Source: Trichinella spiralis (taxonomy: Eukaryota). Taken from it: DNA of 64,000 nucleotides. Positions 37,408 through 39,699 of this stretch are shown piece by piece (the stretch's first letter is position 1; every line of letters begins with the position of its first letter). Below the pieces are notes generated by a model. That model was not told where the DNA came from. It ran no database searches and saw only the letters and a program-made list of their open reading frames with translations. The stretch is taken from positions 4,429,228 to 4,493,227 of the forward strand of contig NW_003526943.1 of the NCBI RefSeq assembly GCF_000181795.1, read 5' to 3'. Made by a program: the position numbers and the translations under genes.

Positions 37408-38211
37408 AAATTGGAATGAAGATAGATTTTCATAATCAACCAAGACAAACTGTTTTTATTGATCTCTCACATTACGTTTACGTTGCATCTTTATCTTAAT
37501 TAAAAGTTTGTTTTGTTATTATTGCTGTTAATTTTTCGTAGATTTTATTTAAATTTTACTTTTTCCTCATGCTTTGAGGAAGAATTTAAATTTTTTATGT
37601 TTTATAAAGGAGTAATAAATTAAAAGTAATTTCTTTTCGATTTTTTTCTGATGTGTATGACATTTATTTGCGAAACTGAAAATTTTTTCTGTTTTTCGTG
37701 CAATTTTTACAAATGTTATAAGATTGTCATTTATGTTGTTTTTTCAAAAATATTTTCATCATTTTTCATTTATTTTCATAAAAATAAATGAAATTTATGA
37801 AATGTTCGCAACTAGTTTTTTAATTCTAAATTGTATAGTATTCTTTTGCTGCATTGTAGGCTGAATATAATTTTCAGGATATATATATTTACAGTATGAA
37901 GTGATACGTCATCTTCGGTAAAGAAAGAAACGATGTGCCTTAGGTCGGTAGTTGCCCTTGTGAAGAAGTGTTCCGGTTGAATTTGTAAATTAGAATACTG
38001 GTGAAAATGGACTTTCGGTAAGTTATTTTGCTTGTGATAATCATTACGATTATGTAAAGTATCTGTTTATTTTCATGTTTAACTGATTGATAATGTTTTC
38101 TGTGATCATTCTTATAAATTTCATAATTATTTTTAAATGGTACTTGAAATTTATATTTAATTACGCTTTTGCAGATATTTCACGTTTATTTTTGACTGTT
38201 TTTAAACATAA

Positions 38212-38329
38212 TTCGCAGCCAGCTTCAGGACATTTTAATGTGTTCTGACGTTAATTTCTGCGATAAATTATTGCACTTTAGCAGTTCACTTGTACTTTAC
38301 GTTCAAGTTAATTTTTGAAGTCTACATTT
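38212..38329 (+). ncRNA. Box H/ACA snoRNA copy 1; 5' pocket predicted to guide the LSU rRNA site equivalent to yeast Psi2944
   Basis: Stems TCGCAG/CTGCGA and TCAGGACA/TGTTCTGA; pocket CCAGCT + CGTT complementary to AACG-U-G-AGCUGG; H box AAATTA; second hairpin ACTTTA/TGAAGT and ACTTG/CAAGT; ACA at 38324-38326. Confidence 0.85.
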
Positions 38330-38633
38330 TCATGAAACTGAAAGTAATTGTTAACTAAGACATATTTATATTTATGTGTGCGTGTGTCAATATATTGCAT
38401 TTTCAGTATCTAATTTGTTGATATTTTTCAGTTCTGTCTTACACTGTTGAATTCTGGAAAATGTTTGACAGAATACAGTAAGTTTTGTTTTTTTTATTTC
38501 GGCTGCTTTTCCCTTCCTAATTGATTTGTACGATGTTATTGGTTCTAATGGTAAAAAGATTTTTTTGCAAATTTGGTGTTTGTTGCTTTCTTTTTTCGTT
38601 TCACATTTTATTTTCTTTATTCTTATTTATACT

Positions 38634-38753
38634 ATTCGCAGCCAGCTTCACAGCATTCTGTTCTGTTGTGACGTTACTTTCTGCGATAAAATATTGTACT
38701 TTAGCAACGAGCTTGTACTTTACGTCCAAGCGTTACTTTTAAAGGCCACATTT
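38634..38753 (+). ncRNA. Box H/ACA snoRNA copy 2; same 5' pocket as copy 1
   Basis: TCGCAG/CTGCGA, upper stem TCACAGCA/TGTTGTGA, pocket CCAGCT + CGTT, H box ATAAAA 14 nt after the upper stem, second hairpin CTTTA/TAAAG and GCTTG/CAAGC, ACA at 38748-38750. Confidence 0.85.
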
Positions 38754-38901
38754 TATGAAAAAATATATTTATTTTGAAAATTGTCTACATGTTTGATATT
38801 ATGGTTGTTTAATTTTAGCTTTTTCGCGTTGTGCAACCGCTGAAAGTTGTCGTAGAGTTGTAAGTAATTTTCATTTTTGTGAAGAAGTTAAAAGAACTAT
38901 T

Positions 38902-39016
38902 GTCGCAGCTCTGCTTCATGGTGACTTTCAACTGTGATGCTGTTTCCTGCGAAATAACAATACGCTTTGCCAGCCTGCGAGTTCTTTTACGAGCAGTTCT
39001 AATTAAGCTTACAAAT
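38902..39016 (+). ncRNA. Box H/ACA snoRNA copy 3 with altered guide pockets; 3' pocket predicted to guide the LSU site equivalent to yeast Psi966
   Basis: TCGCAG/CTGCGA, upper stem TCATGGT/ACTGTGA, H box AAATAA at 14 nt. Second hairpin GCTT/AAGC and CTGC/GCAG, with pocket TGCCAGC + TTCT complementary to AGGA-U-A-GCUGGC. ACA at 39011-39013, 14 nt from the upper stem. Confidence 0.8.
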
Positions 39017-39699
39017 ATTGAATTTCATAGAGCTTTAAAGTTAAATTTAACGTTTTAATTAATACAGTTTTTTATTTTCGTGTTAAATTTTTTGAAGAAG
39101 TTTTTCAATAAGAAATTGTTTCAGAAATTTCAGAGATCGGTTCAAGAAAATTCAATGTGCATTATGTGGATAGCGGTTGCGTAATTACTCAAGTATTATA
39201 TCACCTCTACAGTATATCGGAACGCAGGGTACATGCTATATATAATATGTTTGAACAGAACAGTTACAGTGTGGTTTGATCATTTCAACACCGAGAACCA
39301 GAACTGATGATGCACAATTCTTTTATTCAAAGAACTTGGACCAACTGTTGCATGTTTTCAGCAATGTCGACCGTTGTTGATTTATTTTACAATAAAAACT
39401 GTTTGCGGTGTTGAATGTGCAATTTCAAATAGCAGATTTAATTGTTTAATAACTGATAAAGTAAAAGCTGGTACGGTTGTATGAAATGAATGTACAGTAT
39501 GAAAATGAAAATGAAGTTCATGTAGTGTTTTTCAAACGTAAGCGTCATTAGTAAGAACATAACATGTTGCTTCTCGTGATGATGAAGGTGGAAGCGATGG
39601 CAGCTGCTACTTTGCGACGGCAGAGTTTGTTTGTGCCAAGCTGAAAGCTTCAGTTTGGAGAAAAAGTTTAGTGTTTAGTTCGAGTACGTTTTAGACGGG

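Follow-up and report, generated by a model that had tools for sequence, protein, structure and literature searches.

What is made from the DNA that separates an exonuclease gene from a Trx-like gene in Trichinella spiralis? The locus lies within a stretch of 64,000 nucleotides of contig NW_003526943.1, hereafter the window, to which all positions refer. On the upstream side are the 3' exons of a gene for a DEDDh-type exonuclease (36665..37408, plus strand), labelled REXO1 in a preliminary description of the window, and a PEN-2 gene also lies upstream. The downstream neighbour is the Trx-like gene Tsp_01097 (39700..40752, plus strand), with a Thioredoxin_6 domain. Its open reading frame matches T. 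spiralis Tsp_01097 at 100% over 350 residues and Trichuris homologues at 52-54%, and a metagenome search for its relatives gave 45 stretches, none of them confirmed. Between these genes the preliminary description had placed a dedicated snoRNA host lncRNA, and plus-strand splicing, short open reading frames, indels in the exons and conserved intronic units all support that proposal. We conclude, with a probability of about 0.88, that the locus encodes a spliced non-coding host carrying one member of an H/ACA family in each intron, most likely for releasing rRNA pseudouridylation guides.

Transcript evidence was drawn from 8 of 24 candidate runs, comprising the raw reads of the stranded RNA run X19, of which 169 were placed on 37200-40900, and the contigs of seven runs. 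The three junctions foreseen in the preliminary description were matched exactly by RNA reads: in X19, 38017/38432 was joined in 20 reads, 38477/38819 in 18 and 38859/39125 in 21, and 3 reads skipped exon 3. The first mates of the X19 reads all fell on the same strand, which is the expectation for a plus-strand RNA in most stranded libraries. Contigs of X1, X3, X7, X8, X10 and X12 contained one to three of the host joints per run, and at least one joint was present in seven RNA-type runs (X19 and six contig runs) from five studies, a close relative included. Run X13, with the locus in one piece, contained no joints.

These data define four exons and three GT..AG introns on the plus strand. Exon 1 (37902..38017) has an approximate 5' end, with contigs starting at 37902 in X7 and at 37922 in X10. 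Intron 1 (38018..38431, 414 nt), exon 2 (38432..38477, 46 nt) and intron 3 (38860..39124, 265 nt) are each supported by junction reads and contigs, and intron 2 (38478..38818, 341 nt) by its 18 junction reads; exon 3 (38819..38859, 41 nt) is the one sometimes skipped. The last exon (39125..39410) has an approximate 3' end, with an AATAAA at 39391. The three GTAAGT donors that had been described are present at 38018, 38478 and 38860, the AG acceptors end at 38431, 38818 and 39124, and the two internal exons span the predicted range of 41-46 nt. Intron 2 is partly retained, with an X19 depth of 19-24 over its bins, also outside the unit that it carries. The predicted layout, three introns with one unit in each, is thus a confirmed observation at this Trichinella spiralis locus.

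Depth steps and the AATAAA favour a start and a poly(A) site belonging to the host itself. In X19, read depth fell from 21 to 2 across 39184-39555, past the AATAAA, and stood at 2.7 in the last exon of the exonuclease gene and at about 3 in the Trx-like gene. Two contigs run on into the Trx-like gene: X3 contig 17 and X10 contig 8 span exon 4 and that gene in one piece, as they would if the four exons were a 5' leader or first operon cistron of the Trx-like gene and the host unit also made its mRNA. Depth between the two genes never reaches zero (2.2 in 39432-39555). In the SL2-type operons of T. spiralis, moreover, cistrons are 74-213 nt apart by the figures cited here from PMC7668243, and the distances from the AATAAA to AGs at 39432, 39435 and 39497 are of about that size. 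Set against this are the AATAAA with its fall in depth and the separate assembly of host and Trx-like gene in X1, X7 and X8, and a contig over two genes is no proof of a single transcript. Such a leader would have 23 ATGs within its 778 nt, which makes a plain 5' UTR unlikely, and the Ur motif occurs too often to be informative. We give the leader or operon reading a minority chance, large enough to be kept in mind. The host may be a non-coding first cistron ahead of the Trx-like gene, a version that is compatible with the host role and would add to it. We also considered the host as third cistron of a PEN-2/exonuclease operon. We take F52C9.8 to be pqe-1, the exonuclease, and the two C. elegans names given for its operon to be pen-2 and pqe-1. 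In Table S6 of PMC7668243 the operon with the F52C9.8 homologue comprises two genes in each of the 20 data sets, which argues against a third cistron, and this candidate was left as unsupported.

The coding potential of the spliced RNA is small. The preliminary description had seen no open reading frame beyond 9 codons; this was too strict, as ATG frames of 15, 13, 24 and 35 codons occur in the spliced RNA and one of 21 in the exon-3-skipped form. The 15-codon frame lies in exon 1 (37933-37980, plus strand) and the longest, of 35 codons, begins at 39307 in the last exon (plus strand). These frames are too short for a credible protein and none was shown to be conserved. Comparison was made with a close relative, organism D (run X10), whose contigs are 95-99% alike and in which all three introns are spliced. 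A 1-nt insertion behind 39376 frameshifts the 35-codon frame there. The two substitutions listed for the 15-codon frame are synonymous, which counts against the non-coding reading, and this frame could still specify a micropeptide. The host RNA as a whole has no conserved protein-coding frame.

Substitutions in organism D numbered 3/349 in the units, 15/605 in the intron flanks and 13/468 in the exons, counts that are slight underestimates because changes near contig ends are unlisted. The intron cores therefore change less than the exons, as the preliminary description had predicted for an alignment with a relative. Set against exons and flanks together (28/1073), the units differ at a one-sided Fisher p=0.033 in this one close relative, and against the flanks alone at p=0.059; the exons (2.8%) change at about the rate of the flanks (2.5%).

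A gene model of T. nativa, D917_00864 (P0005, 468 aa), turns the same DNA into protein: about 118 additional residues are read through exon 1, unit 1, exon 2, unit 2 and exon 3 in turn, which would make the exons and units 1 and 2 code for an N-terminal extension of the Trx-like protein. No joint into or out of any unit is listed for the 8 runs, and exon 3 of organism D carries a 2-nt deletion. The other cluster members are 350-372 aa long, the Trichuris muris homologue is 352 aa, and the hydrophobic stretch after the ATG at 39700 reads to us like a signal peptide. The junction data largely refute the extension, which is best taken as a gene-finder artefact, and we find the extended protein hardly credible.

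Each intron holds one unit of the kind that had been described, a hairpin-H-hairpin-ACA element of about 115-120 nt. Unit 1 (38213..38329, plus strand, 117 nt; H box 38265-38270, ACA 38324-38326) is an H/ACA snoRNA candidate, unit 2 (38636..38753, plus strand, 118 nt; H box 38688-38693, ACA 38748-38750) is assigned as an H/ACA snoRNA and unit 3 (38903..39016, plus strand, 114 nt; H box 38954-38959, ACA 39011-39013) as a diverged H/ACA paralogue. In all three, the hinge carries ANANNA and an ACA follows the second hairpin. The distances from the predicted 3' ends of units 1, 2 and 3 to the acceptor are 102, 65 and 108 nt, in agreement with the preliminary description; the argument drawn from that distance is weak, the rule having been established, as we understand it, for box C/D and not for H/ACA snoRNAs. 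UGAG, which we take to be the CAB box motif of scaRNAs, was not seen by inspection in the terminal loops of the predicted folds.

Folding energies gave z-scores of -4.9, -2.9 and -1.6 for units 1, 2 and 3, with 0, 0 and 12 of 200 shuffles as stable, so that for unit 3 energy alone falls short of significance. Scanning both strands of the 64 kb for the H/ACA shape only returned 5 matches, of which three were units 1-3 and the other two lay at a fourth locus; shape alone is weak evidence, because shuffled windows averaged 2.3 matches (42 shuffles). Three matches within 0.7 kb, one per intron, are nonetheless unexpected by our estimate of about 0.02 per 1.2 kb on one strand. Pairwise identities among units 1-3 are 80, 61 and 59% over a shuffle baseline of about 48%, while identity between introns in the unit flanks, and that of the host exons, stays at the shuffle level. 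Judged on these alignments, the three units are paralogues of one duplicated family. Six of 30 base pairs show compensatory change, being altered on both sides, a level reached by 1 of 500 shuffles, for a structure derived from the same three sequences. Against an expectation of 0.02, the window contains 4 occurrences of the closing stem TCGCAG..CTGCGA.

The fourth occurrence belongs to unit 4 (about 29995..30118, minus strand), which a cmsearch with the three-unit model finds over 29998-30118 at 30.7 bits (E 2.6e-4). It has the same closing-stem pattern as units 1-3, lies 8 kb upstream of the host and looks like an intronic element, placed in an apparent intron. Its pockets, scored without a null model, gave no convincing rRNA target. 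Both the paralogy of the units and this nearby fourth member had been overlooked in the preliminary description.

The Infernal/Rfam check that had been suggested recognised no family: there were 0 matches at gathering score across the 64 kb, and at E up to 10 the interval 37400-39700 gave 2 irrelevant matches and no snoRNA family, the named families including SNORA10, SNORA40 and snR37. This silence, together with four dispersed copies sharing an identical closing stem, would suit some other structured repeat or RNA class, such as a stem-bulge RNA, microRNA precursors or a short mobile element. Rfam matches none of the stem-bulge, microRNA or similar classes either, however, and the ANANNA hinge and the ACA are kept in all copies. 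The inverted repeat TCGCAG..CTGCGA closes the first hairpin only, not the whole element, and the best rRNA matches of the pockets place the target uridine 14-16 nt from the boxes. We hold another class to be very improbable.

For an H/ACA family in spliced introns, release would follow a textbook route, on the model of the known pathway in the part of PMC11028025 cited here: after transcription of the host by RNA polymerase II from a promoter of its own, every intron would be excised and debranched, and exonucleases would trim it to a protein-protected core of 114-118 nt. Binding of H/ACA proteins by the units and guided pseudouridylation are predicted. Read ends near both borders support trimming for unit 2 only. 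On its 3' side, 38747 is the start of 13 molecules and 14 adapter-ended reads stop at 38749/38750; on its 5' side, 4 adapter-ended reads stop at 38639. These ends lie 3-6 nt inside both predicted borders in X19, a random-primed library, and fit a discrete RNA, though intron 2 is well covered outside unit 2 too. No read-end pile-up is listed for units 1 and 3 in X19. Unit 2 also has no listed change in organism D.

The units could instead be H/ACA RNAs made from intronic promoters of their own, with the spliced RNA incidental. Intronic ncRNA loci of C. elegans (UM1/UM2) are independently transcribed according to the cited part of PMC1474057, and a T4 run follows units 1 and 2. Such runs are common at the local base composition, however, and within 150 nt upstream the four units share no motif beyond background (0 of 6 pairs unusual) and have no A or B box. 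Unit 3 begins 43 nt past the donor, and one unit per intron behind perfect donors fits release by splicing. Independent transcription thus strikes us as quite unlikely.

Targets were predicted by scanning Rfam-confirmed rDNA of unrelated eukaryotes, not Trichinella's rRNA; a literature text search found no Trichinella 5.8S motif. The surrogates were L121 (3' SSU, 5.8S and 5' LSU), retrieved with a pattern from the unit 1 3' pocket, L123 (3' LSU), the one of three LSU-pattern loci that passed Rfam (L122 and L124 were dropped), and L125 (complete), retrieved with a pattern from the SSU site. In viral contigs the SSU pattern had 0 matches, and the guide-derived 5.8S pattern had at least 120 stretches, which were regarded as chance matches and left unused. 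A fixed-geometry pocket scan, with the geometry taken from each hairpin's fold, covered 8938 nt of L121 and L125.

The 5' pockets of units 1 and 2 have as their top match CCAGCT and CGTT around one LSU uridine, with 10 Watson-Crick pairs and the uridine 16 nt from the H box. By yeast modification anchors, 12 of 12 matching, this is yeast U2944, the anchor positions being those of Table 1 of PMC5699541. The yeast Psi2944 site is human U4521 (old 4491), guided by SNORA10 in the cited part of PMC13015370, and SNORA63 also guides human U4521 in that of PMC6984369. Units 1 and 2 would share a 5' pocket for this uridine of the peptidyl-transferase centre, yeast 25S U2944 (human U4521), which is the most credible of the predicted targets.

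The 3' pocket of unit 2 has its best match at an SSU uridine equal to yeast 1117, to which it may be directed. We take yeast SSU 1117 to be human 1174, by an offset of 57 nt. Human SNORA40 targets 18S-1174 in the cited part of PMC6466398, and Table 1 of PMC5699541 has no modification at yeast 1117. Unit 3 gave a weak best match for its 5' pocket, an SSU uridine equal to yeast 1290 (4/4 anchors), and no convincing target for its 3' pocket in the surrogate rRNA; it may be an older duplicate whose targets are weaker and uncertain. The 3' pocket of unit 1 pairs over 15 nt with 5.8S, at Rfam model position 66. This position presumably lies about 6 nt upstream of yeast 5.8S Psi73; unit 1 as a guide for Psi73 was dropped, the match being at model position 66, which is absent from the yeast modification table of PMC5699541.

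Only the 5.8S match of unit 1 beats shuffled rRNA (3/1000); for the other five of the six pockets, 238-838 of 1000 shuffles score as well, and a loose-geometry scan was without power except for the unit 1 3' pocket. For 3 of 5 distinct pockets, the top match coincides with a known modification site of yeast or human, an outcome with a probability of 0.001-0.009 if, as we assumed, 5-10% of uridines are such sites. All these targets are predictions only, because one pocket in six beats the shuffles and the retrieval patterns came from the pocket or site itself.

The 5.8S match of unit 1 is seen in T. spiralis but not in organism D. Positions 38286-38287 of unit 1 read TC in T. spiralis and GA in organism D; unit 2 reads GA at the aligned place, and in the T. 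nativa model this codon gives Glu instead of Ser, which fits GA. In organism D the GA breaks 2 of the 8 pairs that the 5' strand forms with 5.8S. By inspection, the other pocket differences between units 1 and 2 appear partly wobble-tolerant for the 18S site. Because of the GA in organism D and these tolerated differences, unit 1 may be a drifting copy of an 18S guide with a full 5.8S match in T. spiralis, its 3' pocket having moved from the SSU 1117 site to fit 5.8S, or the match may be a chance one. Vertebrate guide switches are known, including Xenopus SNORA10 from 28S-4491 to 5.8S (PMC6984369, in the part cited), and the pocket of unit 1 lends itself to a clean comparison of two species as a test of target switching. 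That clade I nematodes keep multi-snoRNA non-coding hosts which C. elegans lacks, and that unit 1 has in addition switched from 18S to 5.8S with a species-specific pseudouridine, is as a joint proposition speculative, and we would expect it to fail rather than hold.

The layout of a non-coding snoRNA host gene is described in the cited part of PMC11028025. Hosts in C. elegans are nearly all protein-coding in Table S1 of that paper, unlike the Trichinella host: a non-coding host is given for 7 of about 346 snoRNA rows, of which 1 is intronic, and none of these hosts is shared, in a table that excludes hosts of the 'ncRNA' biotype, so that the absence of multi-snoRNA non-coding hosts from C. elegans is unproven. 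Among titles and openings of abstracts, a scope outside which Zemann 2006, Deng 2006 and Wang and Ruvinsky 2010 fall, we found no Trichinella snoRNA host and no nematode multi-snoRNA non-coding host. The locus is apparently a known type of host that is undescribed in nematodes. The host RNA is unannotated and Trichinella snoRNAs are close to unannotated; Rfam is blind to all four RNAs, and in the T. nativa gene model two of these RNAs become protein exons. From the locus a seed model can be built for an H/ACA family that had gone unrecognised, and units 1 and 2 supply, for this lineage, a first candidate guide to a conserved pseudouridine of the peptidyl-transferase centre. If C. elegans truly lacks such hosts, early-branching nematodes would use the GAS5/UHG strategy and its loss would be testable.

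Non-coding snoRNA hosts comprise the vertebrate GAS5/UHG/SNHG genes and the Uhg genes of Drosophila, and the GAS5/UHG-type architecture claimed in the preliminary description stands, with a spliced multi-exon RNA, one unit per intron and cores better conserved than exons. As in GAS5/UHG/SNHG, the exons are short, without a credible open reading frame, and diverge faster than the snoRNA cores, one snoRNA lies in each intron, and exon skipping and intron retention occur. The units resemble the intronic, short H/ACA RNAs of C. elegans (PMC3342880, PMC1474057 and Table S1 of PMC11028025, in the parts cited). Like yeast snR37 and human SNORA10 and SNORA63, units 1 and 2 have 5' pockets that fit the same uridine; unlike them, they have no Rfam similarity to those families and different second targets. 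The 3' pocket of unit 2 shares its predicted site with human SNORA40, given the offset assumed above, with no sequence similarity found. Human H/ACA snoRNAs are mostly alone in their host, by the cited part of PMC11028025. In contrast to GAS5/UHG, the cargo of the Trichinella host is all H/ACA and all of one duplicated family, and the host belongs to a clade I nematode, in which trans-splicing and operons occur.

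The H/ACA family has a fourth member, which we designate unit 4, on the minus strand at 29995-30118. Its closing stem and H-box context are identical to those of unit 1, the candidate in the first intron of the spliced non-coding host RNA, whereas the pockets differ. Candidate short exons flank unit 4 on the same strand (approximately 30523-30420, approximately 29797-29726, and from 29549 onward, within 29390-30590), and joining these exons yields no long open reading frame in this region. From sequence, they possibly represent a second non-coding host gene.

Exon 1 of the host contains a 15-codon ATG frame (37933-37980), in which both of the listed substitutions in organism D, a close relative of T. 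spiralis, are synonymous; the frame may encode a micropeptide or act as a functional uORF. Directly before the first covered base of the host, and about 90-110 nt past an AATAAA at 37783, lie two acceptor-like sites, TTTTCAG ending at 37877 and TTTACAG ending at 37894. The sites, within 37871-37894, are possible trans-splice sites.

The host also bears on gene models of its thioredoxin-like downstream neighbor. The automated T. nativa model D917_00864 (P0005) maps to 38009-38859, and its thioredoxin-like N-terminus is built from host exons together with snoRNA units 1 and 2; this N-terminal part is likely an annotation artefact. The T. spiralis model, Tsp_01097, gains 22 extra N-terminal residues via a short intron upstream of the ATG at 39700 (39566-39699). 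No joint is listed in that interval, and the compared RNA contigs read straight through it.

Two surrogate rRNA loci used in scanning for pocket targets have unusual contexts. L125 (1-8778) is a whole rDNA unit of eukaryotic origin that carries a group I intron, is bounded on both sides by telomere-like repeats and is possibly a linear rDNA molecule; its contig is assigned to a bacterial MAG, in which it is eukaryotic contamination. L123 (1-120) is a piece of eukaryotic LSU rRNA at the start of a viral contig.

Elsewhere in the window, inspection of translations revealed GC-rich open reading frame fragments at 43300-45240 and beyond, which read like gag-pol of a BEL/Pao-type retrotransposon. 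Upstream of the host, PEN-2 and then the exonuclease gene occupy 32700-37408 on the plus strand, and this pair is likely the two-gene operon listed in Table S6 of PMC7668243.
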